Shown here one piece after another: positions 4,365 through 31,349 of a stretch of DNA of 64,000 bases (positions within the stretch are counted from its first letter, which is position 1; the number at the start of each line of letters is the position of its first letter). Both the position numbers and the translations under genes were made by a program. This stretch comes from an uncultured Clostridia bacterium (GTDB taxonomy: Bacteria; Bacillota; Clostridia; Oscillospirales; CAG-272). Location: positions 57,879 to 121,878 of the forward strand of contig CALWJT010000037.1 of assembly GCA_944381075.1 (NCBI GenBank), given 5' to 3'. The notes beneath the pieces are model-generated. The model did no database searches, was not told where the DNA came from, and was given only the letters and a program-made list of their open reading frames with translations.

Positions 4365-4657
4365 AGATATAAAATCAGGTCATACCGGCCGGGGAGTCAG
4401 CGGTGCCCTGTACCTGCAATCCGCTACAGCAGGGGTGGTTTCCCATTTTGAGGGATGATTTTGTGTGGTCTGCGCTGTATCTCCCCCGTGATGACGGGTG
4501 GGTCTCGTGCAATCGGCGGCTGTGAATCATGTCAGGCGGGGAACCGAGCAGCATTAAGCAGCTCAGCCGATGTGCCACGAGGCGGCCTGCCCCGAGCGGG
4601 GAATACGGCTTACGCATGGAGGATCTTCTCGATATTTGGGTGTATGGCCTGATTTTG
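4365..4657 (+). ncRNA. ffs: signal recognition particle RNA (large, Bacillus-type scRNA with Alu domain)
   Basis: Conserved domain IV core GTCAGGCGGGGAACCGAGCAGC...AAGCAGC...GATGTGCC at 4530-4578. A terminal helix pairs AAAATCAGGTCATACC (4371-86) with GGGTGTATGGCCTGATTTT (4638-56). No credible ORF. Sits directly upstream of dnaX-ybaB-recR, as in B. subtilis. Ends are approximate. Confidence 0.8.
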
Positions 4658-4694
4658 TAGCTCGCTCTTAGTTTGATGAGGAGGTGGCGGTTTC

Positions 4695-6293
4695 ATGTAT
4701 CAGGCGCTTTATCGAAAATGGCGTCCTGCGGTATTCGACGATGTTGTGGGACAGGAACACATCACGTCCATTCTCAAAAGCGAGGTCGAAAGCGGAAAGA
4801 TCTCGCACGCTTACCTTTTCTGCGGACCGCGCGGTACCGGAAAGACCACCTGTGCCAAAATCATTGCAAAGGCGGCGAACTGCGAGCATCCGGAGCATGG
4901 GAACCCGTGCGGGAAGTGTCCCTCCTGCCTTTTGGTGGAGGAGGGCTCGGCAACGGACATCATCGAAATGGACGCGGCGAGCAACAACGGCGTCGACAAC
5001 ATCCGGGACCTGCGGGACGGTATCCTCTATACGCCTGCGGATTTAAAATACCGCGTCTATATTATCGACGAAGTGCATATGCTCTCGATCTCAGCCTTCA
5101 ATGCGCTTTTGAAAACACTTGAGGAGCCGCCGGAGCACGTCATTTTCATTCTTGCAACAACGGAACTGCATAAAATCCCGGCGACGGTGCTCTCGCGCTG
5201 TCAGCGATTCGACTTTCACCGCGTTTCCTCTGAGGCGATCGTCGGTCGGCTGAAAACGGTATGCGCAGGCGAGGGCATCGAGGCGGAGCCGCGTGCCCTG
5301 TCGCTGATCGCCGGTCTTTCGCAGGGCGGACTCCGAGATGCGCTCAATATGCTGGAATACTGTGCGGGGGAAGGAGAGGTCATCACGGCGGAACGGGCGG
5401 AAAATCTGCTCGGCGCCTCGCCTCGCTCGCTCCTTGCTTCGTTTGCCGATGCGGTCGCTGTGCGCGACGCGGTTCCGGCCCTTGCTGTGATTGACGAGGT
5501 TTATCAGTCCTCGCGCGATATCGCGGTGTTCTGGCGGGAGCTTGTCTCCTTTTATCGGGACATGCTCATCGCGCTGGGCACGAAAATGGCAAGGGCAGGC
5601 GACGAAACCGTGAAGCATTCGGCGGGCGCTTATTCGCTGCCGCGCCTTTTGTATGTGATGGAGATCCTTATTTCGGCGGAAACGGATATGCAGAAAAATC
5701 CGTCCGGCGCAAGATTATATGCGGAGATGGCGGTCATTCGCGCGTGCGACAGCTCGCTTGAGGGAAGCCCGTCGGCGCTTGCCGAACGGATCTCCGCGCT
5801 GGAGCAGAGACTTGCCGAGGGTCCCGCGTCGCCCTCCGAGCCTTTGAGACCTGAGCCCAAGGCCGATCCCGATATGACGAAAAAGGAGGAGCTGAAAGCG
5901 CCTGCCGCGTCTCCAAAGGAAACGGCTCCGCAGCCTGCCCCGCCGCAAAAGGAAAAATCTCGTGAAAAAACTCTGCGGGGATTCCGGAAATGGCCGGAGG
6001 TGATACGGAAGCTTTCCGCCACGGAAGGGCTGCTGGTTCCGTTTTTGCAGTCCGCCTATGCGTATGAAGGGTCTGACGGCAGGTTCTACCTGTATTTTGA
6101 AAATTCCTTTGCCGTATCCCTTTTGACGGAGGAAAAAAAACGCACGCTGTGCGCCGCCGTCAATGCGGCGGGCGGCGGAAATTACCAGCCGTCTGAAATC
6201 ATCGGGACGGTAAGGGAGGATGCGGGAGGACTGCGCGAGCCGATCGACGATCTTCTCGATATGGAGACTCAAAAGGAGAACTCCGGATTTTGA
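4695..6293 (+). CDS. dnaX: DNA polymerase III subunit gamma/tau
   Basis: MYQALYRKWRP..F.DVVGQEHI...YLFCGPRGTGKTTCAKI...C..C..C clamp-loader signature. RBS GAGGAGGTGG. Confidence 0.95.
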   Translation: MYQALYRKWRPAVFDDVVGQEHITSILKSEVESGKISHAYLFCGPRGTGKTTCAKIIAKAANCEHPEHGNPCGKCPSCLLVEEGSATDIIEMDAASNNGVDNIRDLRDGILYTPADLKYRVYIIDEVHMLSISAFNALLKTLEEPPEHVIFILATTELHKIPATVLSRCQRFDFHRVSSEAIVGRLKTVCAGEGIEAEPRALSLIAGLSQGGLRDALNMLEYCAGEGEVITAERAENLLGASPRSLLASFADAVAVRDAVPALAVIDEVYQSSRDIAVFWRELVSFYRDMLIALGTKMARAGDETVKHSAGAYSLPRLLYVMEILISAETDMQKNPSGARLYAEMAVIRACDSSLEGSPSALAERISALEQRLAEGPASPSEPLRPEPKADPDMTKKEELKAPAASPKETAPQPAPPQKEKSREKTLRGFRKWPEVIRKLSATEGLLVPFLQSAYAYEGSDGRFYLYFENSFAVSLLTEEKKRTLCAAVNAAGGGNYQPSEIIGTVREDAGGLREPIDDLLDMETQKENSGF

Positions 6294-6329
6294 TCTATTA
6301 TTCTATTCGCCAAAGGAGAGAACAGGGTT

Positions 6330-6674
6330 ATGAAAGCAAGAGTACCTCAAGGACCTTCCATGAACGCCATGCTGAAGCAGGCGCAGAAAATGCAGGAGGA
6401 TATGGCAGCGCTCCAGGCTGAGCTTGAGGAGCGGGAATATGAGATTTCCGCCGGAGGCGGCGCCGTCAAAATCAAGATCAACGGGAAAAAAGAGATCTTA
6501 TCGCTTGAAATCTCTCCGGAGATCGTCGATCCGGACGATGTAGAGACGCTTTCGGATATTCTGACGGCAGGCATCAACGAAGCGATCCGCCGTGTTGAGG
6601 AAACCTCGCAGCGCGAGATGGAAAAAATCACGTCCGGCATGCCGGGGATGCCCGGCATGCCAGGGCTTTTTTGA
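6330..6674 (+). CDS. ybaB: nucleoid-associated protein YbaB/EbfC
   Basis: 114 aa with the NMNAMLKQAQKMQEDM...GGGAVKIKINGK pattern. Canonical position between dnaX and recR. Confidence 0.9.
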   Translation: MKARVPQGPSMNAMLKQAQKMQEDMAALQAELEEREYEISAGGGAVKIKINGKKEILSLEISPEIVDPDDVETLSDILTAGINEAIRRVEETSQREMEKITSGMPGMPGMPGLF

Positions 6675-6693
6675 GAAGGAGCGGAGCTGAATC

Positions 6694-7290
6694 TTGGAAT
6701 ACATTCTTCCGCTTCAGAAGCTGATCGAGCAGTTCTGCCGGCTTTCCGGCGTCGGACAAAAAACGGCTGTCCGCTATGCGTTTTCCGTTCTGGACATGAG
6801 CGAAGAGGAGGCGAAGGCGTTCGCCGACGCGATCGTTTCCGCCAAGCGGGACATCGTGAAATGCGAGATATGCGGGAACCTCAGCGATAAGCCGGTATGC
6901 AGCATCTGCTCGGATGAGCGTCGGGACCGGTCGGTCGTCTGTGTGGTCGAGGATGCCAAAACGGTGATGGCGCTCGAAAGAGTAAAGGAATACAACGGGA
7001 CGTATCATGTTCTGGGAGGCGCCATATCGCCAATGGACGGTGTGGGGCCGGATGAGCTGCGCATCGGAGAGCTTTTGGACAGGATCCGAAAGGGCGGCAT
7101 ACGGGAAGTGATCCTCGCGACCAATCCCAATATCGAGGGGGAGACGACCGCAATGTACTTGTCGAAGCTGCTTTCTCCGCTCGGCGTGCGCGTGACGCGG
7201 CTTGCCTACGGCGTTCCGGTGGGCGCGGACCTCGAATATGCGGATGAGGTGACGCTTCTGCGCGCGCTGGACGGACGGCGCGATATTTAA
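6694..7290 (+). CDS. recR: recombination protein RecR
   Basis: LIEQFCRLSGVGQKTA HhH motif, zinc finger C..CGN...C.IC, Toprim VCVVEDAKTVMALE. TTG start with GGAG 7 nt upstream. Confidence 0.95.
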   Translation: MEYILPLQKLIEQFCRLSGVGQKTAVRYAFSVLDMSEEEAKAFADAIVSAKRDIVKCEICGNLSDKPVCSICSDERRDRSVVCVVEDAKTVMALERVKEYNGTYHVLGGAISPMDGVGPDELRIGELLDRIRKGGIREVILATNPNIEGETTAMYLSKLLSPLGVRVTRLAYGVPVGADLEYADEVTLLRALDGRRDI

Positions 7291-7814
7291 TCCTGCGGCA
7301 GCAGCAGGCGGCAGATAAGAGAAGAGAAGAATACGCAGAACAGCATTGCGGCAAAGGCGGCGGGCAGGGCATGGCGGGTCTTTCTCACATTGACCGACGC
7401 AAAATAAACTGCGCTTACATAAAGAATGGTATCGGAAGAGCCGAGCAGCACGGAGGCTACGTTTCCCGCAAAGCTGTCGGCTCCGTATTGTTCAAATAGC
7501 TCTGAAATCATGGCGTTCGACGCGCTTCCGGAGATCGGTCTCATGATGACAAGAGGAAGGATCTCGGAGGGGATCCCGATTTTTTCGCAAAACGGCGCGA
7601 TTTTTTCCGCTAAGAAATCTACCAGTCCGGAAGCGGAAAGCATCGATACCGAAACCATCAGGACAATCAGCGTCGGGAGCAGGCCGACGCAGGTCCGGAT
7701 GCCGTCCTTTGTTCCGTCTATAAAATGGTCGAACGATGTCCTTTTGGAAAAAAGGAGAGCAGCGCCGACAAGTACGATAACGCCGCAGATGACGGCGGAG
7801 GCAAGGAGCTCCAA
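7287..7814 (-). CDS. spmB: spore maturation protein B (nucleoside-recognition/Gate-domain membrane protein)
   Basis: Polytopic membrane protein ...MRPISGSASNAMISELF...SAVYFASV. Paired with spmA. Confidence 0.85.
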   Translation of the reverse strand: MELLASAVICGVIVLVGAALLFSKRTSFDHFIDGTKDGIRTCVGLLPTLIVLMVSVSMLSASGLVDFLAEKIAPFCEKIGIPSEILPLVIMRPISGSASNAMISELFEQYGADSFAGNVASVLLGSSDTILYVSAVYFASVNVRKTRHALPAAFAAMLFCVFFSSLICRLLLPQD

Positions 7815-18856: not shown

Positions 18857-21367
18857 TCAGCCTTCAGAAAGACCGAATTTTTTTGCCGCATCCTCGCGCA
18901 TTTTATATTTGAGGATCTTACCCGCTGCGTTCATCGGGAAGCTGTCCACGAAATCGACATAACGGGGGACCTTGTGTCTTGCCATGCTGGAGGCGACATA
19001 AGCTTTGATTTCCTCCTCCGTCGCGGTTTCGCCGTCGCGCAGGACGATGCACGCCATGATTTCCTCTCCATAGCGCTTGTCCGGAACCCCGATGACCTGC
19101 ACGTCCTTGACCTTGGGATACGTGTAGAGGAATTCCTCAATTTCCTTGGGATAGATGTTCTCGCCGCCGCGGATGATCATATCCTTGAGCCGTCCCGTGA
19201 TCCGGTAGCTGCCGTCCGGCGTGCGGCAGGCGAGATCTCCGGTATGCAGCCAGCCGTCTTTGTCAATAACGGCAGCGGTAGCGGACGGCATTTTGTAATA
19301 GCCCTTCATCACGTTGTAGCCGCGTGCGACAAACTCGCCGTTTGTACCGTCCGGCGCATCGAGCCCGGTTTCGGGATCTACGATCTTGCATTCCACATGC
19401 GGAAACGCATAGCCGACGGTTTCGCATCGGATGTCGAGCGGATCATCGAGCTCCGTCATGGTACAGCCGGGCGAGGACTCGGTCTGCCCATATACGCTGA
19501 CGATCCCTCTCATGTTCATTTCATCGGGCTGCGCCGCACGGCGCATGAGGTCCGCCGGACAGTTGGAGCCTGCCATGATGCCGGTACGCATATAGGAAAA
19601 GTCCGTTTTGCGGTAGTCCTCATGATTCATCATTGCGATGAACATCGTCGGCACGCCATGGAAGCAGGTGATATGCTCGTCGTTCACGCAGGCGAGCGAG
19701 GATTTCGGAGAAAAATAGGGAAGCGGCAGGACCGTCGCGCCATGCGTCATCGCGGCCGTCATCGCGAGCACCATTCCAAAGCAGTGGAACATCGGCACCT
19801 GGATCATCATGCGGTCCGCGGTAGAAAGGTCCATGCGGTCGCCGATACATTTCCCGTTGTTGACGACGTTGTAATGGGTGAGCATCACGCCTTTAGGAAA
19901 GCCGGTCGTGCCGGACGTATACTGCATGTTGCAGACATCCTGCGGGGATACCTTGGCGGCCATGGCGGCAACGGCTTCCGCCGAAACGCCCGTACTGCGC
20001 CGGAGCGCCTCCTCCCATGTCATGCAGCCCTTCTGGCGGAAGCCAACGGTGATGACGTTGCGCAGAAAGGGGAGCCTTTTTGCGTGGAGCGGTTCCATCG
20101 GCGCTTTTTTTTCAAGCTCCGGACAAAGCTCCGCTATGATCCCTGCATAATTGGAGTCACGCCATCCTTCGATCATGATAAGCGTATGCGTATCTGACTG
20201 ACGCAGCAGATATTCCGCCTCATGGATTTTGTAGGCCGTGTTGACTGTGACCAGCACCGCGCCGATTTTGGTCGTTGCCCAGAACGCGATATACCACTGA
20301 GGCAGATTGGTTGCCCATACCGCGACATGGGAGCCTGCGCGCACGCCCATGTCGACAAGCGCGCGGGCGAAGGTATCCACGTCGTCGCGGAACTGCGCAT
20401 AGGTGCGCGTATAGTCGAGTGTCGTGTATTTGAAGGCATACTGATCGGGAAATTCCTCGACGAGCCGGTCGAGCACCTCGGAAAAGGTAAGGTCGACGAG
20501 CGCCTCCTTCTGCCAGATGAATTTTCCGGTGTGCAGCTTGTTTTCATAGAGCTTTTTTTCCGCCCGCTCGCGGGTCCGGTAACGAGACATGTAGCTTGTG
20601 TAGTGCAGAAGGATGATGTCCATGTCGGTCATGTCGGGCATCCAAGCGGGGTCCCATTCCAGGGAGAGAAATCCGTCGTAGTTGATGGAGCGAAGTGCCA
20701 GCATCATGTCGTCCAAGGGCAGGGTACCTTCGCCGACGAGACGGTATTCCGCTTTGCCGCCGACCATCTCCGAATCCTTGAGGTGGACATGCCTGATATA
20801 AGCGCCGAGATTTTTCAGCGAGACCTCCGCGGACTCACCTGCCTTACGAAAGGTATGGTGCATATCCCAGAGCGCACCGAGGCTGTCGCAGGCGAAGCGG
20901 TCGAGCATCTGCATGAGCCTCGCTGTGTCCGCATAAATTCCGACGGTTTCGAGCAGCAGCGTGACACCTTTCTGTTCTGCCTCCGGCACAAGTGCTTTCA
21001 GATACCGATAGACGGTATCCTCTGTTTTTGGTACGTCTGTCCCGCAGGCGCGGATCCGCACATAGGGAATTTTCAGACTTGCCGCCGTCTCGATACAGGC
21101 GGCGATTTCCGTCGCGGTCACATCAAATTCCGCGGGGTCTCCGATATCGCATACGGAGTCGATGCAGGGGACGGAAAGCCCCATTTCCTGCAGGTTCCGA
21201 TAGGTGGCGCGCACCATATTTTGATCGAATACCGCGTTTTTTCCGGTAAACGTCGGATTGTGGATGTCGTGGATCTCGATTCCCTCATAGCCCAAGTCGC
21301 GGGCCTTCTCTAAATAATCCCCCCATTCGGGAAGATTCCATCCTTTGGTGGAAAATGAAAATTTCAT
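18857..21367 (-). CDS. fusion protein: N-terminal xylose-isomerase-like TIM barrel (sugar-phosphate isomerase/epimerase family) + C-terminal AMP-forming acyl-CoA synthetase/ligase
   Basis: aa 1-~265: MKFSFSTKGW...YEGIEIH...LLLETVG...LWDMHHT...HVHLKD...FLSLEWD (AP_endonuc_2-type barrel). aa ~300-836: YTSGTTGFPKGVMLTH, GYYKMP, HTGDLA..DGSYRITGRLKDMIIRGGENIYPKEIE, GKILK (ANL superfamily A3-A10 motifs). Confidence 0.85.
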   Translation of the reverse strand: MKFSFSTKGWNLPEWGDYLEKARDLGYEGIEIHDIHNPTFTGKNAVFDQNMVRATYRNLQEMGLSVPCIDSVCDIGDPAEFDVTATEIAACIETAASLKIPYVRIRACGTDVPKTEDTVYRYLKALVPEAEQKGVTLLLETVGIYADTARLMQMLDRFACDSLGALWDMHHTFRKAGESAEVSLKNLGAYIRHVHLKDSEMVGGKAEYRLVGEGTLPLDDMMLALRSINYDGFLSLEWDPAWMPDMTDMDIILLHYTSYMSRYRTRERAEKKLYENKLHTGKFIWQKEALVDLTFSEVLDRLVEEFPDQYAFKYTTLDYTRTYAQFRDDVDTFARALVDMGVRAGSHVAVWATNLPQWYIAFWATTKIGAVLVTVNTAYKIHEAEYLLRQSDTHTLIMIEGWRDSNYAGIIAELCPELEKKAPMEPLHAKRLPFLRNVITVGFRQKGCMTWEEALRRSTGVSAEAVAAMAAKVSPQDVCNMQYTSGTTGFPKGVMLTHYNVVNNGKCIGDRMDLSTADRMMIQVPMFHCFGMVLAMTAAMTHGATVLPLPYFSPKSSLACVNDEHITCFHGVPTMFIAMMNHEDYRKTDFSYMRTGIMAGSNCPADLMRRAAQPDEMNMRGIVSVYGQTESSPGCTMTELDDPLDIRCETVGYAFPHVECKIVDPETGLDAPDGTNGEFVARGYNVMKGYYKMPSATAAVIDKDGWLHTGDLACRTPDGSYRITGRLKDMIIRGGENIYPKEIEEFLYTYPKVKDVQVIGVPDKRYGEEIMACIVLRDGETATEEEIKAYVASSMARHKVPRYVDFVDSFPMNAAGKILKYKMREDAAKKFGLSEG

Positions 21368-21386
21368 GGCAGCTCCTTTCCCGCGC

Positions 21387-22787
21387 TTAAATATTCTCTT
21401 CGTATGCGATCTTGTTGAGGGCGTTCACATATGCGCGGATGCTCGAACCGATGATATCCGTGGAAATCCCGTTCCCAGAGTAAAGCTTTCCGTTCTGGCG
21501 GAGTCTTACGAGCGCCGCGCCCATTGCCTCCTTGCCCTCGGTGACGGACCGGATCTGAAAATCGTCCAGCTCATATTTGATGCCGATGATTTTGTCCACC
21601 GCGAGGAAGGCGGCGTCGATCGGACCATGGCCGGAGGAGACCCCCTCAAGGATTTCGCCGTTTTTTTCCATTTTGATATAAGCGGTGGAGGAGATCCCGC
21701 TGCCGTTGGTGACAAGGAAGCCGAGCAGCCGATACGTATCGGGGACCTGGAGGGCGACGGCGGCGATGATCGCCTCCAGCTCCACGGCGCCGACGCTTTT
21801 GCCTGACGCCGTGCTCACGACGGATTCATATACCCTTTCCATGTCCTCGTCGGAAAGATCGTATCCGAGCTTTCGGACAGCGGCGGAAACCGCTGTGATA
21901 TCGTCCCCTTCGCCTAAGGCTGAAATGTCGTTTTCGCTGTCAGGCGCCGGCATCCGGACGGCGGGCGCGTCTGCGAATTTTGCGACCAAGCCAAGCGCGC
22001 GCAGCGCACGATGGATCTCCGTCATCCGGATGCCGCAGGAAAGCCCCATATCCTCCCCGCGCGTGCGCAGGATCCCCGCGATATCGTGCAGATCGGGCGC
22101 GGCGCCCGCGCCGCCGACGGCGACCGCGGCACCCGCGGCGCCGGCGCGGAGCGCGGAGATGGTGCAGGCGGCAGCGAGCGTGATTTCATCGGAGCATTGT
22201 ACTTCGAGCGGAATGTCGGCGAGTGCCGGAACCTTTTCGATGAGCTTTTCGACGAAGGCGGACAATTCCTCCGGCATCATGGTGCCGGCGCTGTCGCATA
22301 CAAGGATTTTGGCGGCTCCTGCTGAAATGGCGGTATCGATTGCCTTTGCAAGGTAGGCAAATTCGCTTCTGGTGGCATCTTCTGCGGCAAAAACGACATG
22401 ATCTGTGTGGCTTTTCGCCTGACTCACGAGCTCGGCTATCATTTCAAGGACAGCTTCCGGCTTTTTTCCGCATCGATATTCCATTCCTACGGCAGAGGTC
22501 GGCGCGGCGATAAAAAGCTCCGGCTTTTCGGCGGTACATATGGCGTTCCATGCCTCGTCGACAGACGACGCCGTATAGCCTGACGGCAGGGAAAGCGTAC
22601 TGTCCGATACGACGGCGGCGATGGTTTTCACCGCCATGGTGTCCGGCTTTGAATCCCGGATGGCGGGCAGTCGGATCGCGTCGAGTCCGATCCTGTCGAG
22701 CACCTTTGCGATCTCGACCTTTTCTCTAAGGGAAAGGGAATTTCCCATTTCATAAAGTGTAATGTCGGTAAATGTAACTTTTTTCAT
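21387..22787 (-). CDS. LeuA-like protein (HMGL-like barrel + LeuA allosteric/dimerisation domain) with degenerate catalytic motifs
   Basis: Start MKKVTFTDITLYEMGN with RBS GGAGG. The overall IPMS layout and C-terminal LeuA_dimer domain (GHGPIDAAFLAVDKIIG...SVTEGKEAMGAALVRLRQNGKLYSGNGISTDIIGSSIRAYVNALNKI) are kept. DTTLRDGEQ is replaced by DITLYEMGN and the HxH metal motif by QCS. The track ORF start at 22931 runs into the T-box. Confidence 0.8.
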   Translation of the reverse strand: MKKVTFTDITLYEMGNSLSLREKVEIAKVLDRIGLDAIRLPAIRDSKPDTMAVKTIAAVVSDSTLSLPSGYTASSVDEAWNAICTAEKPELFIAAPTSAVGMEYRCGKKPEAVLEMIAELVSQAKSHTDHVVFAAEDATRSEFAYLAKAIDTAISAGAAKILVCDSAGTMMPEELSAFVEKLIEKVPALADIPLEVQCSDEITLAAACTISALRAGAAGAAVAVGGAGAAPDLHDIAGILRTRGEDMGLSCGIRMTEIHRALRALGLVAKFADAPAVRMPAPDSENDISALGEGDDITAVSAAVRKLGYDLSDEDMERVYESVVSTASGKSVGAVELEAIIAAVALQVPDTYRLLGFLVTNGSGISSTAYIKMEKNGEILEGVSSGHGPIDAAFLAVDKIIGIKYELDDFQIRSVTEGKEAMGAALVRLRQNGKLYSGNGISTDIIGSSIRAYVNALNKIAYEENI

Positions 22788-22815
22788 TTTGACCTCCGTG
22801 CATCCGATAGAAAAA

Positions 22816-23110
22816 TCAAAAAGTCGCCCCTGTGAAGAATCACAGGGACGACAAATTTCATCTGTTCGCGGTACCACCCCGATTACCGTCCAAAAGAACG
22901 GTCTCTCGATCCGATTCGGCGAGGAACTCATCCTCGTTTAAATCGGTGCAGCTGTAACGGGTGCGCCCGTAGCCTCCTACTTTCGTTTTTTCAGAGACTC
23001 CGCTCCGGAACGAGACTGTACCTGCTTCCGCCGCCGCCTGCTCTCACCGACCGCAGGCTCTCTGGATGCCGTAAAGCTGCACATAATTCCATCGTCGCGT
23101 TTTTGTATAC
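22816..23110 (-). promoter_or_regulatory. T-box leader, leucine specifier (CUC)
   Basis: On the minus strand: AGAGAG (23063-58), distal loop GGTGAGA, T-box motif AATCGGGGTGGTACCGCG (22884-67), terminator GTCGTCCCTGTG..CACAGGGGCGAC+TTTTT (22852-16). Specifier loop is ..ACAGU-CUC-G (CUC = 23014-12), followed by UUCC pairing with GGAA (23090-87). Confidence 0.85.
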
Positions 23111-23233: not shown

Positions 23234-24028
23234 TTACTGTTTTGGTCCAAAGAGCCGTTCAAAGTTGCCGGCAAAGTACATTTCATATTCTTTTTCGGAA
23301 AGGCCGAAGGCTTTTACCCGTTCAAGCTCGCCTGTGGCGTTCCAGATCGGGAAGTCCGTTCCGAAAAAGAAACGGTCGATCCCGAATTTGTCAAACATGG
23401 AAAGGGCATAGTCGCGGGAGATAAACATCGTGGAGCTCGAGGTATCGAACCAGAGCCTGTCGGACGGCTCCAGCACGTCATGCGCCTCTTTCCAGCGCCG
23501 GTAGCCTCCGAAATGCGCTGCAATGACGGTAAGGTCCGGGATTTTTCTCATGACGGCGGCGAGCTTTGCGGGCGATGACGCTTCATACCGGTCGTCCCCC
23601 ATGTGCATGAGGATCGGGAGTCCGCGCTTTGCGATCGCACGGTAAAGAGGAAACCGTTTTTCGTCGTCGATATCGAATTTCTGAAAATCGGGATGCAGCT
23701 TGACGCCGCGAAGTCCGAGGCAGATCGCGCGGTCGAGCTCTTCTTCAAAATTCGGATAATCGGGATGGATGGAGGCAAGTGCCGTCATGCAGTCGTGGCT
23801 CCGAATGACCTGCGCCATGAAATCCGTGATCGTTTCAGTCTGCTCCGGCGTGACTGCGGCAGAGCAGACGAGAAAATGGGAAATGCCGGCAGCTTTTCCG
23901 TCTGCCAGCAGATTCGTGACGGAAGCCGGCGCGCAGTAGCGCATGTCGTAAAAGCCTCCGATGGATTTGGAGACCTTTTCTGCGATTTTATCGGGAAAAA
24001 TATGCGTGTGAGCGTCTATGATTTTCAT
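23234..24028 (-). CDS. amidohydrolase-2 family metal-dependent hydrolase (TIM barrel, COG2159-like)
   Basis: MKIIDAHTHIFPDKI (HxH metal site), ...GVKLHPDFQ...ILMHMGD...AAHFGG...FGTDFP are typical Amidohydro_2 motifs. Own promoter TTGCCA-17-TATAAT (24141-24113, minus strand). Confidence 0.8.
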   Translation of the reverse strand: MKIIDAHTHIFPDKIAEKVSKSIGGFYDMRYCAPASVTNLLADGKAAGISHFLVCSAAVTPEQTETITDFMAQVIRSHDCMTALASIHPDYPNFEEELDRAICLGLRGVKLHPDFQKFDIDDEKRFPLYRAIAKRGLPILMHMGDDRYEASSPAKLAAVMRKIPDLTVIAAHFGGYRRWKEAHDVLEPSDRLWFDTSSSTMFISRDYALSMFDKFGIDRFFFGTDFPIWNATGELERVKAFGLSEKEYEMYFAGNFERLFGPKQ

Positions 24029-24286: not shown

Positions 24287-24315
24287 TTGACAAACCGGCA
24301 GAACTGTGATATAGT
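24287..24315 (+). promoter_or_regulatory. consensus sigma-A promoter of the Ile T-box operon
   Basis: TTGACA (24287-92), 17 nt spacer, TGaTATAGT (-10 at 24310-15). Confidence 0.65.
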
Positions 24316-24321
24316 CATCAA

Positions 24322-24596
24322 TAACAAGCAAAAGCTGTGACGGAGAGGATCCGAATACGATGCTTTCAGAGAGCCGGTGGCAGGTGAGAACCGGCAGCGG
24401 AGGATTCAGGCGGTCTATCGCTCCCGAGCTGGAATCGTGAAAATCGCGTGCGATGAAGTAGCGCTTCCCGTGATTGCTGCGTCAAGGCATGGGACTTGTC
24501 GGAGTCCGAGAGGGGCGGTCAGATGGCCGCAATTTGAGTGGTACCGCGGATGTATATTTACACCCGTCTCAAAGAGATTGAGACGGGTGTTTTTTG
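24322..24596 (+). promoter_or_regulatory. T-box leader, isoleucine specifier (AUC)
   Basis: Base stem AGCT/AGCT, K-turn GTGA (24337-40), AGAGAG (24368-73), distal loop GGTGAGA, T-box motif AATTTGAGTGGTACCGCGG (24531-49), terminator ACACCCGTCTC..GAGACGGGTGT+TTTTTT (24560-96). Specifier loop is ..GGUCU-AUC-G (24417-20), then CUCC pairing with GGAG (24342-45). Confidence 0.85.
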
Positions 24597-24676
24597 TTTA
24601 TAGCGCCCGTCCGGAACCTTATATTTTTATTTATCTAAGCTCCGCGACCGACGCGCGGAGGGAAAGGTTGAGCAAA

Positions 24677-26953
24677 ATGGACGCAAAAACACAGACCATG
24701 TCGGGGCAGCTTTTGGAAATTGCCGAGCGCATTCGGGAGATGCGGCGGGTATCGGGCTTTTCTGAGGAGGAAATGGCGCAAAAAACGGATACCTCGCTCG
24801 CCGAATACCGTCAGTATGAGGCGGGGGCTTTGGATTTTCCTTTTACCTTTATCCATAAGTGCGCGATCGCCTTCGGCATCAGCATCGCGGATATCCTGGA
24901 AGGGGAGAGCCCGAAGCTTTCTTCCTATATGGTGACAAGAAAAGGCGAAGGGCAGCAGACGGCGAGGGAGGACGGCATCAGCATCCAAAACTTGGCGCCG
25001 CTGTTCCGCGGAAAGCTGGCAGAGCCGTACTGGGTACGGTACGAGTATTCGGAGGAGCTGCAGCACCGGCCGATCCATTTGACGACGCATTCCGGCCAGG
25101 AATTTGACATCGTGCTTTCCGGAAAGCTCAAGGTCCAGGTCGGCTCCAATACGGAGATCCTGAACGAGGGGGACAGCATCTTCTATGATTCCTCCACCCC
25201 CCACGGCATGATCGCCGTAGACGGTCAGGACTGCTGCTTCTGCGCCGTCGTCATTCCCGGCGAGAGTACGCCGGAACGGGAGATCCGGGACAGTGTGGTC
25301 TCTGCCCGGCGCGTAGAAAAGCTCGTCTGCAGCAAATTCATCGAAACCGTCGAGGACGAGAACGGAACGCCGCTTGAGATCCGTTATAAGGATCAGGAGC
25401 ACTTCAACTTCGCGTTCGATATCGTCGATGAGATCGCCGCCAAATATCCGGATAAAACGGCGATGGTCCATCTGGACCGCGACAAAAACGAAAGGCGCTT
25501 TACTTTTGCGGACATGAAGCGTGCTTCTTCCCAGTGCGCGAATTATTTCAAATCGCTCGGCATCCGGAAAGGCGACCGTGTGATGCTGGTCCTCAAGCGC
25601 CACTATGCGTTCTGGTTCGCGATCCTCGGCCTGCATAAGCTCGGCGCGATCGCGGTCCCCGCTACCAATCTTTTGAAGGACCATGATTTTGTGTATCGCT
25701 TCAACGCGGCCGGCATTTCCGCTATTCTTTGTACAGCGGACGGCGACGTGGCGGAGCAGGTCGAGCTTGCCGAGCGGGAGTCCCCGACGCTGAAAACAAA
25801 AATTCTTGTCGGCGGTACGCGCGACGGCTGGCATGATTTTGACAGCAGCTACAGCCTGTTTTCCGGAAAGTTCGCACGCGGCGAGGACGCGCCCTGCGGC
25901 TCGGATACGATGCTGATGTTCTTTACCTCCGGCACGACCGGCTATCCGAAAATCGCCGCGCACAGCTATACATATCCCTTAGCGCATTTCGCTACGGCAA
26001 AATACTGGCATTCGGTGGATTCCGACGGCCTGCACTTTACCATTTCCGATACGGGCTGGGGAAAGGCGCTCTGGGGCAAGCTCTACGGACAGTGGCTCTG
26101 CGAGGGCGCGGTGTTTACCTATGATTTCGACCGCTTCCATGCCGCCGATATCCTGCCGCTGTTTGCGAAATATCATATCACGACGTTCTGTGCGCCTCCG
26201 ACCATGTACCGCATGATGATCAAGGAGGATATCTCCAAATACGATTTCAGCTCGGTCAAACGGGCGACGACGGCAGGGGAGGCGCTCAATCCGGAAGTAT
26301 TCCTCCAGTTTGAAAAGGCGACGGGGCTCAAGCTCATGGAAGGCTTCGGCCAGACGGAAACCACGCTTACCATTGCCAATCTGACGGGGACGACCCACAA
26401 GCTCGGCGCAATGGGAAAGCCGGTCCCGCCCTATCAGATCGAATTGCTGTCACCGGACGGCAAACCGGTCGCGGACGGCGAAACGGGAGAGATCTGCATT
26501 CGCGCGGAAGAGGGCAATCTCCCGTGCGGACTGTTCCAAGGCTATTGGGGCGAGCCGGAGAAAACGGCGGAGGTTTGGCACGACGGCTATTATCATACGA
26601 GAGACGTCGCATGGCGGGATGAGGAGGGCTCTTTTTGGTACGTCGGCCGCAGCGACGACGTCATCAAATCCTCCGGCTACCGCATCGGACCATTTGAGAT
26701 CGAGAGCGTTATCATGGAGCTTCCGTATGTGCTGGAGTGCGGCGTTTCCGCGGCGCCGGACGAGGTCCGCGGACAGGTCGTCAAGGCGAGCGTCGTCCTG
26801 ACGAAGGGAACCGAGCCGTCCGAAGCGCTGAAAAAAGAAATTCAGGAATACGTCAAGGAAAAGACCGCGCCGTATAAATATCCCCGCATCGTCGTGTTCC
26901 GTGATGAGCTGCCGAAAACCATCAGCGGAAAGATTATCCGCAATCAGCTGTGA
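24677..26953 (+). CDS. fusion protein: XRE-type HTH + cupin domain + AMP-forming (medium-chain/ACSM-like) acyl-CoA synthetase
   Basis: Start MDAKTQTMSGQLLEIAERIREMRRVSGFSEEEMAQKT (HTH_3) with RBS GGAGGGAAAGG. Cupin: HSGQEFDIVLSGKLKV..G.....L.EGDSIFYDSSTPHG. ANL motifs: FFTSGTTGYPK, GYWG.PEKT, YHTRDVA, GRSDDVIKSSGYRIGPFEIES, PKTISGKI. The track ORF (from 24377) reads through the T-box. Confidence 0.85.
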   Translation: MDAKTQTMSGQLLEIAERIREMRRVSGFSEEEMAQKTDTSLAEYRQYEAGALDFPFTFIHKCAIAFGISIADILEGESPKLSSYMVTRKGEGQQTAREDGISIQNLAPLFRGKLAEPYWVRYEYSEELQHRPIHLTTHSGQEFDIVLSGKLKVQVGSNTEILNEGDSIFYDSSTPHGMIAVDGQDCCFCAVVIPGESTPEREIRDSVVSARRVEKLVCSKFIETVEDENGTPLEIRYKDQEHFNFAFDIVDEIAAKYPDKTAMVHLDRDKNERRFTFADMKRASSQCANYFKSLGIRKGDRVMLVLKRHYAFWFAILGLHKLGAIAVPATNLLKDHDFVYRFNAAGISAILCTADGDVAEQVELAERESPTLKTKILVGGTRDGWHDFDSSYSLFSGKFARGEDAPCGSDTMLMFFTSGTTGYPKIAAHSYTYPLAHFATAKYWHSVDSDGLHFTISDTGWGKALWGKLYGQWLCEGAVFTYDFDRFHAADILPLFAKYHITTFCAPPTMYRMMIKEDISKYDFSSVKRATTAGEALNPEVFLQFEKATGLKLMEGFGQTETTLTIANLTGTTHKLGAMGKPVPPYQIELLSPDGKPVADGETGEICIRAEEGNLPCGLFQGYWGEPEKTAEVWHDGYYHTRDVAWRDEEGSFWYVGRSDDVIKSSGYRIGPFEIESVIMELPYVLECGVSAAPDEVRGQVVKASVVLTKGTEPSEALKKEIQEYVKEKTAPYKYPRIVVFRDELPKTISGKIIRNQL

Positions 26954-27689: not shown

Positions 27690-27896
27690 ATGGCAAAGCT
27701 TACGTTTCAAACGGACCTCTGCAAGGGCTGCGGACTGTGCGTGGACGCCTGTCCGAAAAAAATCCTTGCGCTGGCAAAGGGCAAGATCAACAAAAAAGGA
27801 CACAATCCGGTCGAGGTAATCGACGAAAGTCTCTGTATCGGATGCGCTTTCTGCGCGACGATGTGTCCGGACTGCATCATTACGGTCGAAAAATAA
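27690..27896 (+). CDS. 2x[4Fe-4S] ferredoxin, delta subunit of 2-oxoacid:ferredoxin oxidoreductase
   Basis: 68 aa with CKGCGLCVDACP and CIGCAFCATMCP cluster motifs. Confidence 0.85.
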   Translation: MAKLTFQTDLCKGCGLCVDACPKKILALAKGKINKKGHNPVEVIDESLCIGCAFCATMCPDCIITVEK

Positions 27897-27941
27897 AATA
27901 TACCGCTTTCCGGTTCATGCCGGAGGCTATGGAGGTTAAGT

Positions 27942-29006
27942 ATGGCAGAAAAAGTTTTGATGAAAGGGAATGAGGCGATCGCCGAGGCGGCAATCGCCGC
28001 CGGGTGCCGCCATTATTACGGATATCCGATCACGCCTCAGACGGAGATCGCCGCCTATATGGCGAAGCGCATGCCAAAGATAGGAGGCGTGTTCCTTCAG
28101 GCGGAAAGCGAGATTGCCGCCATCAACATGGTGTATGGGACCGCGTCGGCGGGATACCGCGTCATGACGTCCTCGTCGAGTCCCGGCATATCGCTCAAAT
28201 CCGAGGGACTGTCCTACATCGCAGGAAGCGATCTGCCCTCTCTTGTTGTCAACGTACAGCGCGGCGGTCCGGGTCTTGGAAGCATCCAGCCTGGGCAGTC
28301 CGATTATTTTCAGGCGACCAAGGGCGGAGGACACGGCGACTATCATATGATCGTGCTGGCGCCTGCGTCCGTGCAGGAGATGGCGAGCCTGACGGTAAAG
28401 GGGTTCGATCTTGCGGACAAATACCGCATGACGTCTATGATTCTTGCCGACGGAACCATGGGGCAGATGATGGAGCCGGTGTCCTTTGAACATATCGAAG
28501 TCAAGACCTATGACAAGCCGTGGGCGCTGACAGGCACGCGGGGGAAGCGGAAGCATAACATCATTACCTCACTTTCCCTTGTTCCCAAGGAGCTGGAGGA
28601 ATGGAATTTCTCCCGTTATGAAAGATATCGCCTCATTGAAGAGAACGAGGTGATGTACGAGGAATTCATGATGGAGGACGCAGAGGTCTGCATCGTCGCG
28701 TTCGGCATTTCCGCGCGCGTGTCGCAGAATGCGATCCGCATGGCGCGGGCCAAGGGTATACGCGCGGGGATGATCCGTCCTATCACGCTCTGGCCGTTCC
28801 CGAAAGCGCCGCTTGCCAAGGCTGCGGACAAGGTACGCGCGTTTATCAGCGTTGAGCTTTCCATGGGACAGATGATCGAGGACGTCGAGCTTGCAACAAG
28901 ATGCAAAAGGCCGGTGCTCCTCTGCAACCGGGTGGGCGGCATGATTCCTTCGCCGGAATCGGTGCTCGCAAAGATCGAAGAAGCGATGGGAGGCGACAGA
29001 ACATGA
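27942..29006 (+). CDS. 2-oxoacid:ferredoxin oxidoreductase alpha subunit (VorB/KorA type, ~350 aa)
   Basis: MAEKVLMKGNEAIAEAAI.AGC..YYGYPITPQTEI... and ...GGPGLGSIQP.QSDY are canonical for the alpha subunit. Confidence 0.9.
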   Translation: MAEKVLMKGNEAIAEAAIAAGCRHYYGYPITPQTEIAAYMAKRMPKIGGVFLQAESEIAAINMVYGTASAGYRVMTSSSSPGISLKSEGLSYIAGSDLPSLVVNVQRGGPGLGSIQPGQSDYFQATKGGGHGDYHMIVLAPASVQEMASLTVKGFDLADKYRMTSMILADGTMGQMMEPVSFEHIEVKTYDKPWALTGTRGKRKHNIITSLSLVPKELEEWNFSRYERYRLIEENEVMYEEFMMEDAEVCIVAFGISARVSQNAIRMARAKGIRAGMIRPITLWPFPKAPLAKAADKVRAFISVELSMGQMIEDVELATRCKRPVLLCNRVGGMIPSPESVLAKIEEAMGGDRT

Positions 29007-29773
29007 TCGTATTTGAAAAACCGAAGGCGCTGACCGACGCGCCGCTGCATTATTGTCCGGGCTGCACGCACGGGATCATCCACAGGCTGGTCGCCGAAGC
29101 GATCGATTCGCTCGGCATCGAGGGGATCACCGTCGGCGTAGCACCGGTCGGCTGCGCGGTGTTCGCCTACAACTACTTTTCCTGTGATATGGTCGAAGCC
29201 GCGCATGGACGTGCGCCGGCGGTCGCGACGGGACTCAAGCGCGCGGAGCCGGAGAATATCATTTTTACCTATCAGGGCGACGGTGACCTTGCCTCCATTG
29301 GCATGGCGGAAACCGTGCATGCCGCTGCGAGAAACGAGAACATCACCATTGTTTTTGTCAACAATGCAATCTACGGGATGACGGGCGGACAGATGGCGCC
29401 GACCTCGCTTCCCGGTCAGGTCACACAAACATCTCCTTACGGACGCGATACGTCGGTCTGCGGATTTCCTGTGCGCGTGTGCGAGATGCTCTCTCAGGTG
29501 GACGGCGCCGAATACATCGAGCGCGTCGCCGTCAATAACGTGAAAAACGTCAAGAACGCTGGACGCGCGATCAAAAAGGCGTTTGAAAATCAGATCAACA
29601 AAAAGGGATTTTCCTTGATAGAGGTGATCTCCTCCTGTCCTACCAACTGGGGGCTCACGCCGCAGAAGGCGCTGGAATGGGTAGAGGAAAAAATGATCCC
29701 GTATTATCCGCTCGGCGTATATAAGGACCGCAGCGCCGGATTTGTTTACGGAAAGGAGGGCGCGGCAAGATGA
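29003..29773 (+). CDS. 2-oxoacid:ferredoxin oxidoreductase beta subunit (TPP-binding)
   Basis: Start MIVFEKPKALTD.PLHYCPGCTHG (ATGA overlap with alpha). GDGD...NN..YGMTGGQ TPP motif. The track ORF start at 28901 is an upstream extension. Confidence 0.9.
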   Translation: MIVFEKPKALTDAPLHYCPGCTHGIIHRLVAEAIDSLGIEGITVGVAPVGCAVFAYNYFSCDMVEAAHGRAPAVATGLKRAEPENIIFTYQGDGDLASIGMAETVHAAARNENITIVFVNNAIYGMTGGQMAPTSLPGQVTQTSPYGRDTSVCGFPVRVCEMLSQVDGAEYIERVAVNNVKNVKNAGRAIKKAFENQINKKGFSLIEVISSCPTNWGLTPQKALEWVEEKMIPYYPLGVYKDRSAGFVYGKEGAAR

Positions 29774-30306
29774 GCACGACACAGATTTTGATCGCCGGCT
29801 TCGGCGGACAGGGCGTTCTGTTCGCCGGGAAATTCCTTGCTTATAAAGGGATGCTGGAGGAAAAGCAGATCAGCTGGCTGCCGTCCTATGGGCCGGAGAT
29901 GCGCGGCGGAACGGCAAATTGCAGCGTTATTGTCAGTGACACGCCGGTCGGCTCTCCGATTGTCACGGAACCGGATGTGCTTGTGGCGATGAATCTGCCT
30001 TCCTTCGATAAATATGAAAACGACACGGTCAAGGGAGGACTGATTCTTGTCGACAGCTCCCTGATCGAACGAAAAGCCGTTCGAGAGGACGTCAGCGTAT
30101 TTTACATACCGGCGACCCGAATGGCGCAGGAAGCGGGTTTTCCCACGCTTGCCAATATGATCTTGGTGGGCAAGCTGCTGCGCGAGTGTCCGGAGATGGG
30201 ATACGAAAATACCGAGGCCGCGCTCAAAAAGGTAGTTTCCGCCAAGCATATGGATCTTTTTGATTTGAATCTGAAGGCGATCGACATGGGGTATCGTTTT
30301 GCTTGA
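29770..30306 (+). CDS. 2-oxoacid:ferredoxin oxidoreductase gamma subunit
   Basis: [17 protein letters not shown]........[24 protein letters not shown] is the gamma-subunit signature. 4-nt overlap with beta. Confidence 0.9.
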
Positions 30307-30485: not shown

Positions 30486-31349
30486 TTGCAAAAAATGATC
30501 GGAGAAAAAATAAGAGCGCTTCGCATACAGAAAAAAATGACGCAGGCAGAGCTTGCAGGCAGCTTTATAACGCGCAATATGCTCAGCCAAATCGAGAATG
30601 GAGTTGCCATGCCTTCCGTGCCAACGGTCTTAGAGCTTGCAAAACGTCTGGACGTGCCGGCGTCATATTTTTTTTCGGATGCCGGTACGCTCGACGATTA
30701 CCGAAAAATCGGTGCGCTCGATAAAATCAAAAAGCTTTACGCGGCAAAGGAATATGAAAAATGCTTGGGAAAGCTGAGGGAACTCAGCATTTTTGACGAT
30801 GAGACGGAGATGCTCTATGCGTGGGCCAGTCTTTCCTGCGGGATCGAAAAATATCGCGCGGGGTATTTGAAAAGCGCCCGCTCCTACTTTGAGGAAGCGT
30901 TGACGCATTCCCAAAAAAGCTTATACGGAAATCCGGCTCTTTCGGACACGGCCGCGCAGTACCTTGACGCGGTCGCATGGATCCGTGCGGGGGAAAAGAC
31001 GCCTTATCCAAGGACCGAGCGGGATACCGCAGCCGAGCTTGGCGTCCTTGCGGATCTTTCTTATATTCAGGCGGTCGCCGGAGAGCGGGAGACGTTTGAA
31101 TACGGAACAGCCTTTCCGATGTATGCGGACCATTTAAAGGCGCGGGCGGATATGCAAAAGGGAAATTATAGAACGGCGGCGCAATCGCTCAAGGAGCTGG
31201 TGGCCCGGGACGGCGAAAAGCGTTACGCTGTGATGAAATATTACGCATTGCACGATCTTGAGTCCTGCAGCAGCAGGGAAGGCGACTATAAATGCGCTTA
31301 TGAATGTGCGAGCGCCGGCCGTGCGCTTGCGGAAAAAATGAACAAATAA
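30486..31349 (+). CDS. XRE-family HTH transcriptional regulator with helical (TPR-like) C-terminal domain
   Basis: IGEKIRALRIQKKMTQAELAG.....NMLSQIENG.A.PS..TVLELAKRLDVP is an HTH_3 domain. TTG start 6 nt after GAGGAG. Confidence 0.7.
   Translation: MQKMIGEKIRALRIQKKMTQAELAGSFITRNMLSQIENGVAMPSVPTVLELAKRLDVPASYFFSDAGTLDDYRKIGALDKIKKLYAAKEYEKCLGKLRELSIFDDETEMLYAWASLSCGIEKYRAGYLKSARSYFEEALTHSQKSLYGNPALSDTAAQYLDAVAWIRAGEKTPYPRTERDTAAELGVLADLSYIQAVAGERETFEYGTAFPMYADHLKARADMQKGNYRTAAQSLKELVARDGEKRYAVMKYYALHDLESCSSREGDYKCAYECASAGRALAEKMNK

Follow-up and report, generated by a model that had tools for sequence, protein, structure and literature searches.

Anaerobes of the rumen and gut have long been known to build isoleucine, valine and leucine from 2-methylbutyrate, isobutyrate and isovalerate. 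Rumen anaerobes make isoleucine and leucine from 2-methylbutyrate and isovalerate (PMC10658910), and MacsMa, an acyl-CoA ligase of M. acetivorans, prefers 2-methylbutyrate as its substrate (PMC10455477). Characterised XRE-cupin proteins, in which an XRE-type helix-turn-helix (HTH) domain is followed by a cupin, are local repressors of neighbouring metabolic genes, which sit as dimers on palindromes and are released by the precursor that they sense (PMC7901475). Both protein types meet in a single gene found in a 64,000-nucleotide (nt) stretch of DNA, hereafter the window, from an uncultured Clostridia bacterium (GenBank assembly GCA_944381075.1, contig CALWJT010000037.1, positions 57,879 to 121,878). 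The gene encodes a 758-amino-acid (aa) protein in which an HTH-cupin module precedes a MACS-type acyl-CoA ligase, and it lies between an isoleucine T-box leader and the genes of a 2-oxoacid:ferredoxin oxidoreductase (Table 1). The module is tentatively read here, with a probability of roughly 0.45, as a non-DNA-binding, ligand-sensing partner domain of the ligase in an isoleucine salvage operon. Literature searches found no description of an HTH-cupin-ligase fusion.

The HTH, the cupin and the ligase are parts of one protein. An initial annotation of the window had left room for a start codon downstream of the HTH-cupin module, which would have made two separate genes; the module and ligase instead share a single open reading frame (ORF), and an identical protein is encoded on six metagenome contigs where independent gene calls place the start at the same ATG. 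Most relatives also carry a GGAGG-type site 5′ of the start codon. An 858-aa version beginning at GTG 24377 was rejected, as it would read through the T-box leader and its terminator. The same annotation described a standard HTH_3 domain, a cupin and a complete ACSM-like ligase, and of this description “standard HTH_3” was overstated for the window protein. The Pfam HTH_19 and HTH_31 matches at residues 14–77 reach 20.5 bits, under the gathering cut-offs of 30.2 and 27, but orthologues of the fusion exceed the Pfam HTH thresholds. The AlphaFold2 (AF2) model of residues 1–203, with a predicted local distance difference test score (pLDDT) of 86.6, contains five helices (residues 3–26, 30–36, 41–48, 56–66 and 70–74) followed by a beta-barrel. 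On these two grounds the HTH fold is real, though its match to standard models is weak in the window protein. The cupin is confirmed by a Cupin_2 match at residues 137–190 (E 2.5e-11, above the gathering score) and by a barrel modelled at pLDDT 90–98. The linker that follows has a mean conservation of 0.60 and is invariant in both paralogue groups described below at only 2 of 42 positions. Both Pfam ligase domains are present (AMP-binding, residues 251–624, E 2e-63; AMP-binding_C, residues 674–752, E 6e-23), and residues 219–756 align with MacsMa (3ETC) over the whole length at E 8.7e-193, closer than human ACSM2A (E 3.6e-95).

The fused architecture is widely conserved. The 215-aa N-terminal module was compared with one genome per species and 80 loci were fetched. 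Relatives of the module are encoded by at least 570 species-level genomes, and the fetched loci come from Oscillospiraceae, Acutalibacteraceae, Christensenellaceae, Lachnospiraceae and some Spirochaetales. All complete ORFs at these loci are fusions of 756–762 aa, with 64–86% identity to the window protein in the module and 67–92% in the ligase part, so that the module is conserved nearly as strongly as the catalytic domain. The earlier remark that an enzyme-regulator fusion is unusual therefore holds in that the architecture is uncharacterised, but not in frequency, as gut and rumen Clostridia carry it very often. Three of the fetched loci (L019, L023 and L032) belong to metagenome-assembled genomes (MAGs) of Spirochaetales and Sphaerochaetaceae and carry the same fusion with a 69–70% identical module and the same isoleucine T-box; in L023 and L032 the same oxidoreductase genes follow. 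Their occurrence suggests either that the cassette moved horizontally between phyla or that contigs were misbinned. At locus L016, relaxase and large serine recombinase genes (4618–7499) lie directly 5′ of the operon, and the cassette there may be next to or on a mobile element.

In other lineages, the module is a separate protein. When 1.84 billion representative proteins were searched with the module, 570 matched at E ≤ 1e-10, many of them proteins of 180–200 aa that align with it end to end at 35–46% identity, and a profile search found thousands of clusters of standalone module-like proteins. Where standalone homologues (184–199 aa) were looked up on their contigs, the next gene on the same strand encoded an unfused ligase of the same subfamily in eight cases out of eight, at distances ranging from a 4-nt overlap to a gap of 116 nt. 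Seven of these ligases are complete, with 52–61% identity to the ligase part of the window protein, while the eighth runs off its contig. The hosts of the split pairs include Acutalibacteraceae, Zongyangia hominis, Candidatus Soleaferrea, a lineage of Bacteroidota (Prolixibacteraceae) and a Methanomassiliicoccaceae archaeon. The pair in Z. hominis is preceded by an isoleucine T-box. The module and ligase genes of the archaeal locus (L087) have a 4-nt overlap, and next to them, in divergent orientation, are the P-loop and oxidoreductase genes. This split and fused (“Rosetta stone”) relationship identifies the module and the ligase as functional partners. Most split pairs (L081, L085, L088, L094 and L095) have neither a T-box nor an oxidoreductase close by and are flanked by amylase, PGI, aldolase and sporulation genes, so the module-ligase pair is also used outside the context of amino-acid salvage.

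The T-box assigns the fused gene to isoleucine. The leader, predicted in the initial annotation, proved real: it has an RF00230 match, the specifier codon AUC (Ile) at 24417–24419, the conserved T-box sequence TGGTACCGCG at 24539–24548 and a terminator hairpin. A T-box sequence is found 75–300 nt 5′ of the start codon in 74 of the 76 loci with sufficient upstream sequence. A simple specifier regular expression found ATC in only 47 of 81 loci and was replaced by a pairing-aware search, which gave ATC for 75 fused genes. A scan of 19 loci at the Rfam gathering score confirmed the T-box in only four, because many of these T-boxes score just under 93 bits. Most loci carry a second HTH-cupin-ligase fusion of about 760 aa with its own T-box, located between the Ile-type fusion and the P-loop gene (L016:10608–12905, L050:3034–3290, L052:2511–2751 and more than 40 other loci), and the pairing-aware search gave GTA or GTC (Val) specifiers for 44 of these paralogues. 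The Val-type copy is absent from the window, which holds no second copy of the module, and from a minority of relatives.

The genes downstream complete the picture of a biosynthetic operon. Relatives keep the P-loop gene and the four oxidoreductase genes (delta, alpha, beta and gamma) in synteny, and the P-loop gene stands between the ligase gene and that of the oxidoreductase delta subunit in all related bacterial loci that reach far enough; it is also present in the archaeal locus. Its product, for which no NCBIfam match was found, may serve the oxidoreductase as an Fe-S or assembly factor. Among NCBIfam models, MbcS matches the ligase part best (417 bits, under the equivalog cut-off of 850), and motifs A3 (TSGTTGYPK) and A10 (PKTISGK) are both present. 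Similarity to MacsMa, the isoleucine T-box and the operon content make 2-methylbutyrate:CoA ligase the most likely activity. The AUC T-box ahead of the gene and the oxidoreductase behind it fit one route, from 2-methylbutyrate to isoleucine. The likely general route would run from branched-chain acid to acyl-CoA, 2-oxoacid and amino acid, with substrate and direction deduced from this gene content.

Comparison of the two paralogues bears on both halves of the protein. Three of the four conserved Ile/Val-type differences in the ligase (G462A, L465M and G477A, bulkier in the Val type) fall in the segment DTGWGKALWG, which we take to line the acyl pocket in acetyl-CoA synthetase structures. These substitutions would be in line with a Val-type paralogue that takes isobutyrate. 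Across the protein, conserved differences between the types occupy 8 of 73 HTH and 8 of 98 cupin positions, compared with 4 of 415 positions in one ligase domain and 0 of 103 in the other, an excess that fits a module bearing specificity as a sensor. One feature of the window ligase is less usual. Its motif A7 (motif III) reads YHTRD at 26598–26603 (residues 641–642), with Arg642 replacing the usual Gly; Gly occupies this position in 99 of 103 relatives, and the Arg is common to a small clade (L001, P0001, P0028, P0036 and P0044). In an acetyl-CoA synthetase, a change at any position of motif III reduced the catalytic rate (PMC3438747).

The favoured reading starts from the observed architecture, conservation, split and fused relationship, T-box specificity and operon content, and adds to them a conjectural ligand and a conjectural effect on catalysis. 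Uncharged tRNA-Ile would switch the operon on through the T-box. The MACS-type domain would then carry out the ATP-dependent first step, from 2-methylbutyrate to 2-methylbutyryl-CoA, which the co-transcribed oxidoreductase would reductively carboxylate to 2-oxo-3-methylvalerate for transamination to isoleucine; the Val-type paralogue would serve the equivalent route from isobutyrate. The HTH-cupin module would descend from an XRE-cupin protein that is the standing partner of the ligase and that other lineages encode in a gene of its own, upstream of the ligase gene. No longer reading DNA, it would be a cis-acting domain for sensing or regulation. A small pathway molecule would bind in the cupin pocket (His138, Glu142, His176 and polar residues that are conserved, perhaps also a metal), and the acidic HTH would provide a protein-protein or dimerisation surface that, together with the cupin, tunes ligase activity.

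The initial annotation had offered two roles for the module, a second, DNA-level layer of control on top of the T-box or a ligand-gated regulatory domain of the ligase. The latter is compatible with all findings and is preferred; the former found no support in acidity, reading residues or upstream regions. The mean net charge of the 69-aa HTH segment is −5.5 in Ile-type fusions, −5.1 in the Val type and −6.7 in standalone homologues, and that of the window protein (residues 12–80) is −5. As controls, the 434 repressor has +4 and the XRE protein at 30486 of the window +2; the PuuR HTH core has about +3 by hand count, while PuuR residues 8–76, including an acidic tail, sum to 0. The “recognition” helix of the window protein reads T-S-L-A-E-Y-R-Q-Y-E-A-G, and the family consensus is V-S-[LV]-E-E-Y-x-x-Y-E-x-G. 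Residues aligned to Q28, Q29, S30 and Q33 of the 434 repressor, which we take to be its base-contacting positions, are [L/V/T], [E/A/D], [E/D] and [Q/A/R], that is, acidic and variable among orthologues. The invariant R23, Y44, Y47, E48 and G50 align to 434 R10, I31, L34, E35 and G37, presumably hydrophobic-core and salt-bridge positions. Helix 3 thus offers no evident polar or basic DNA-reading surface, its consensus being acidic and the segment charges −5 to −7 against +2 to +4 in the controls.

No shared operator was found in the upstream regions either. Nearly all of the 75 related loci with an alignable promoter have the layout TTGACA-17-TGnTAtAAT with non-conserved spacers, and in the window an A/T-rich tract lies just 5′ of the TTGACA box. 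By visual alignment, the 75 promoter regions have only the −35 and −10 boxes and the A/T tract in common. When gapped palindromes were counted in 76 upstream regions and in shuffled controls, only T-box stems and T5/A5 tracts recurred; the best recurring palindrome, of one of these kinds, is present in 17 of the 76 loci compared with 2–3 in shuffles, and the A/T tracts are of the kind found in UP elements. An inverted-repeat search in the window and in split-pair upstream regions found no palindrome common to five split-pair loci; operators elsewhere in the genome lay outside these searches. From sequence, the HTH probably does not bind DNA.

These results bear most directly on the idea that the protein is bifunctional, both enzyme and repressor, a “trigger enzyme” of the BirA, PutA or NadR kind, whose HTH dimer binds an operator while the cupin senses a branched-chain acid or metabolite. 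The fusion would couple the ligase to transcription of its own operon or of further genes for branched-chain amino acids, and each standalone homologue would be a local XRE-cupin repressor of the usual kind, acting on the ligase gene beside it. The role of characterised XRE-cupin proteins as local repressors of neighbouring metabolic genes (PMC7901475) speaks for this idea, as do an intact HTH fold and a module that aligns over its full length with the XRE-cupin architecture, including E. coli PuuR (19% identity, E 5e-5). The regulator-then-enzyme order of the split pairs resembles puuD-puuR, and most split pairs have no T-box and hence need other transcriptional control. Against it, beyond the Glu/Asp-rich would-be reading residues found across phyla and the missing palindrome, stands the cognate T-box that already gates expression in the great majority of fused loci. 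The fusion also locks “repressor” and enzyme at a 1:1 ratio, the archaeal gene overlap likewise suggests coupled production, and most HTH differences between two paralogous fusions of the same operon are conservative hydrophobic swaps (M/L, F/L and L/I). A bifunctional enzyme-repressor is thus considered rather unlikely. A narrower version, in which a BirA-like ligase-repressor for branched-chain salvage binds DNA, or a different nucleic acid, solely when it is in one catalytic or ligand state, such as that with acyl-adenylate or amino acid bound, is judged distinctly doubtful. It would link ligase turnover to the transcription of branched-chain amino-acid genes elsewhere in the genome, and the standalone pairs would be its ancestral two-component form.

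The cupin could alternatively be catalytic, as a metal-dependent isomerase, epimerase or lyase acting on the acid, acyl-adenylate or acyl-CoA, with the HTH-like domain helping to build the active site as in HppE, HEPD and MPnS. H138, E142 and H176 are invariant from Firmicutes to Bacteroidota and Archaea, and in the alignment with HppE they fall on H, E and H residues of that enzyme, which are presumably its iron ligands. In a Foldseek search with the two-domain model the nearest structures are HppE (E 8.5e-14), 1Y9Q, Psf4, HEPD and MPnS, and the family profile matches 1Y9Q, an uncharacterised HTH_3-cupin protein of V. cholerae (E 6.5e-11), and HppE end to end (E 7.8e-8). A second ligase in the window also bears an enzyme-like N-terminal domain, a xylose-isomerase-like TIM barrel. 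The superposition on HppE is nevertheless poor, with about 19% identity, a root-mean-square deviation of about 12 Å and a TM-score of about 0.5. The His-Glu-His triad was dropped as a sign of catalysis, since the PuuR repressor carries the same H-x3-E...H pattern. Conversion of acid to acyl-CoA and 2-oxoacid needs no extra chemical step, and the known HTH-cupin enzymes use O2, which would be unlikely in strict anaerobes. A catalytic cupin is accordingly given very little weight.

Least probable among the accounts considered is an assembly or adaptor domain with no ligand-dependent role, which would serve ligase oligomerisation or dock the ligase to the P-loop protein and oxidoreductase for channelling of acyl-CoA. 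Such a role would suit the retention of the ligase, P-loop and oxidoreductase gene set in bacteria and one archaeon, the conserved acidic HTH surface, which suggests a protein partner, and the 1:1 ratio held by the fusion. Many split pairs, however, have no nearby oxidoreductase, and the cupin interior, with its conserved His and polar residues, looks more like a site for a small molecule or metal than like a passive scaffold.

Several observations also weigh against the preferred reading of the module as a ligand-sensing partner domain. Bona fide XRE-cupin repressors are likewise encoded near or inside the operons they control; puuR itself lies 27 nt after puuD, inside the operon that PuuR controls, and tight gene linkage was for this reason dropped as an argument against a repressor. 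As PuuR shares both the triad and the operon adjacency, neither feature discriminates between the models. The charge and residue arguments only lower the odds of DNA binding, and helix 3 of the window protein does contain Arg and Gln. Part of the excess of paralogue-specific positions in the module comes from its greater overall divergence. The full-length AF2 model (pLDDT 75.4, predicted TM-score 0.63) gives no confident placement of the module on the ligase, its junctions being of low confidence. Most split pairs lack a T-box or a nearby oxidoreductase, so the shared function may concern the ligase reaction generally and not amino-acid feedback. Finally, MacsMa is active on its own in vitro (PMC10455477), and the module is therefore not needed for catalysis.

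Other genes lie close to the operon. Directly after the oxidoreductase genes, 30486–31349 encodes an ordinary XRE-family protein with an HTH_3 match at E 8e-13, a net positive HTH and an extended helical part at the C-terminus; as a candidate regulator of the neighbourhood this protein is more conventional. On the opposite strand (18857–23104), a second T-box (22841–23104, 102 bits) with the specifier CUC (Leu) precedes a divergent LeuA-like gene (21387–22931, minus strand; 284 bits against an equivalog cut-off of 532). This gene is followed by one whose 836-aa product joins a xylose-isomerase-like TIM barrel (AP_endonuc_2) to an acyl-CoA ligase from another, PRK12583-like subfamily; this second fusion may be the isovalerate/leucine counterpart. 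An Amidohydro_2-family gene (23234–24028, minus strand) lies between the two divergent T-box operons, and the same order is found on contigs L091 and L092.

Table 1. Features of the isoleucine T-box operon, in positions of the window.
Feature	Position	Strand	Basis and details
Sigma-70 promoter	24287..24315	+	TTGACA 24287-24292, 17-nt spacer, extended -10 TGaTATAGT 24307-24315; read from sequence
T-box leader	24328..24574	+	RF00230, 93.7 bits against gathering score 93, E 7.9e-20
Intrinsic terminator of the T-box	24561..24598	+	Stem CACCCGTCTCAA...TTGAGACGGGTG, then T-run; overlaps 3′ end of Rfam match
Ribosome-binding site GGAGGG	24657..24662	+	14 nt 5′ of ATG 24677; from sequence
Whole coding sequence, HTH-cupin-ligase fusion	24677..26953	+	758 aa, ATG 24677 to stop 26953, uninterrupted
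XRE-type five-helix HTH fold, aa 12-80	24710..24916	+	Sub-threshold Pfam HTH_19/HTH_31; 434 repressor alignment E 0.005; AF2
Cupin beta-barrel, aa 93-195	24953..25261	+	Pfam Cupin_2; invariant H138, Q141, E142, D166, H176
Linker between cupin and ligase, aa 196-240	25262..25396	+	Poorly conserved; standalone homologues stop here
MACS-type acyl-CoA ligase, large N-domain and AMP-binding_C	25397..26953	+	Pfam; 3ETC alignment; MbcS model
CbiA/ParA-like P-loop protein, 226 aa	26974..27654	+	Weak Pfam CbiA match; start from gene calls
2-oxoacid:ferredoxin oxidoreductase, four subunits	27690..30306	+	Pfam POR_N, PFOR_II, TPP_enzyme_C, POR; synteny
Oxidoreductase delta, 2x[4Fe-4S]	27690-27896	+	
Oxidoreductase alpha	27942-29006	+	
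Oxidoreductase beta	29003-29773	+	
Oxidoreductase gamma	29770-30306	+	

The T-box specifiers provide a direct, sequence-level assignment of dedicated genes to the route from branched-chain acid to amino acid, with an Ile-type and a Val-type ligase each behind its cognate T-box and beside one shared 2-oxoacid:ferredoxin oxidoreductase. The pathway thereby becomes testable in hundreds of uncultured gut species. The XRE-cupin pair, previously known from transcription factors and a small number of phosphonate enzymes, appears here as an obligatory companion of one enzyme family in Bacteria and Archaea. If an allosteric or sensor role is true, its functional range grows, and thousands of “transcriptional regulator” annotations need revision; if DNA binding is true, the fusion represents a new class of trigger enzyme.

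Among known systems, the XRE-cupin factors PuuR, PauR, PsdR, ErfA and DbuR share with the module the two-domain layout and size, a local metabolic enzyme gene and the H-x3-E...H residues. The window module differs in being fused to, or paired with, one enzyme family, in its acidic HTH, in the lack of an operator among the upstream regions searched, and in the T-box that controls its expression. The phosphonate enzymes HppE, Psf4, HEPD and MPnS also join an HTH-like domain to a cupin and are the best structural and profile matches of the module, but they are distant in sequence, perform oxygen-requiring chemistry and are not associated with acyl-CoA ligases. Their HTH-like domain is not known to bind DNA, and an XRE-like domain without this activity would thus have a precedent in these enzymes. 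BirA, PutA and NadR combine an adenylate-forming or metabolic enzyme with an N-terminal domain of a DNA-binding type. The HTH of BirA is winged and its operator, bioO, is known, whereas the window protein has an XRE domain and a cupin, with neither an evident operator at its own promoter nor a basic DNA-binding surface. The ligase part shares the ANL motifs with MacsMa and aligns with it over the whole enzyme; the solved MacsMa chain is a 580-aa stand-alone enzyme that corresponds to the ligase part only, and the window protein has Arg in place of the motif III Gly. MbcS of Staphylococcus aureus, a methylbutyryl-CoA synthetase, activates branched short-chain acids, but its published role is the supply of primers for membrane fatty acids and not amino-acid synthesis (PMC10026030), and its model, of 525 positions, likewise covers only the ligase part of the window protein.

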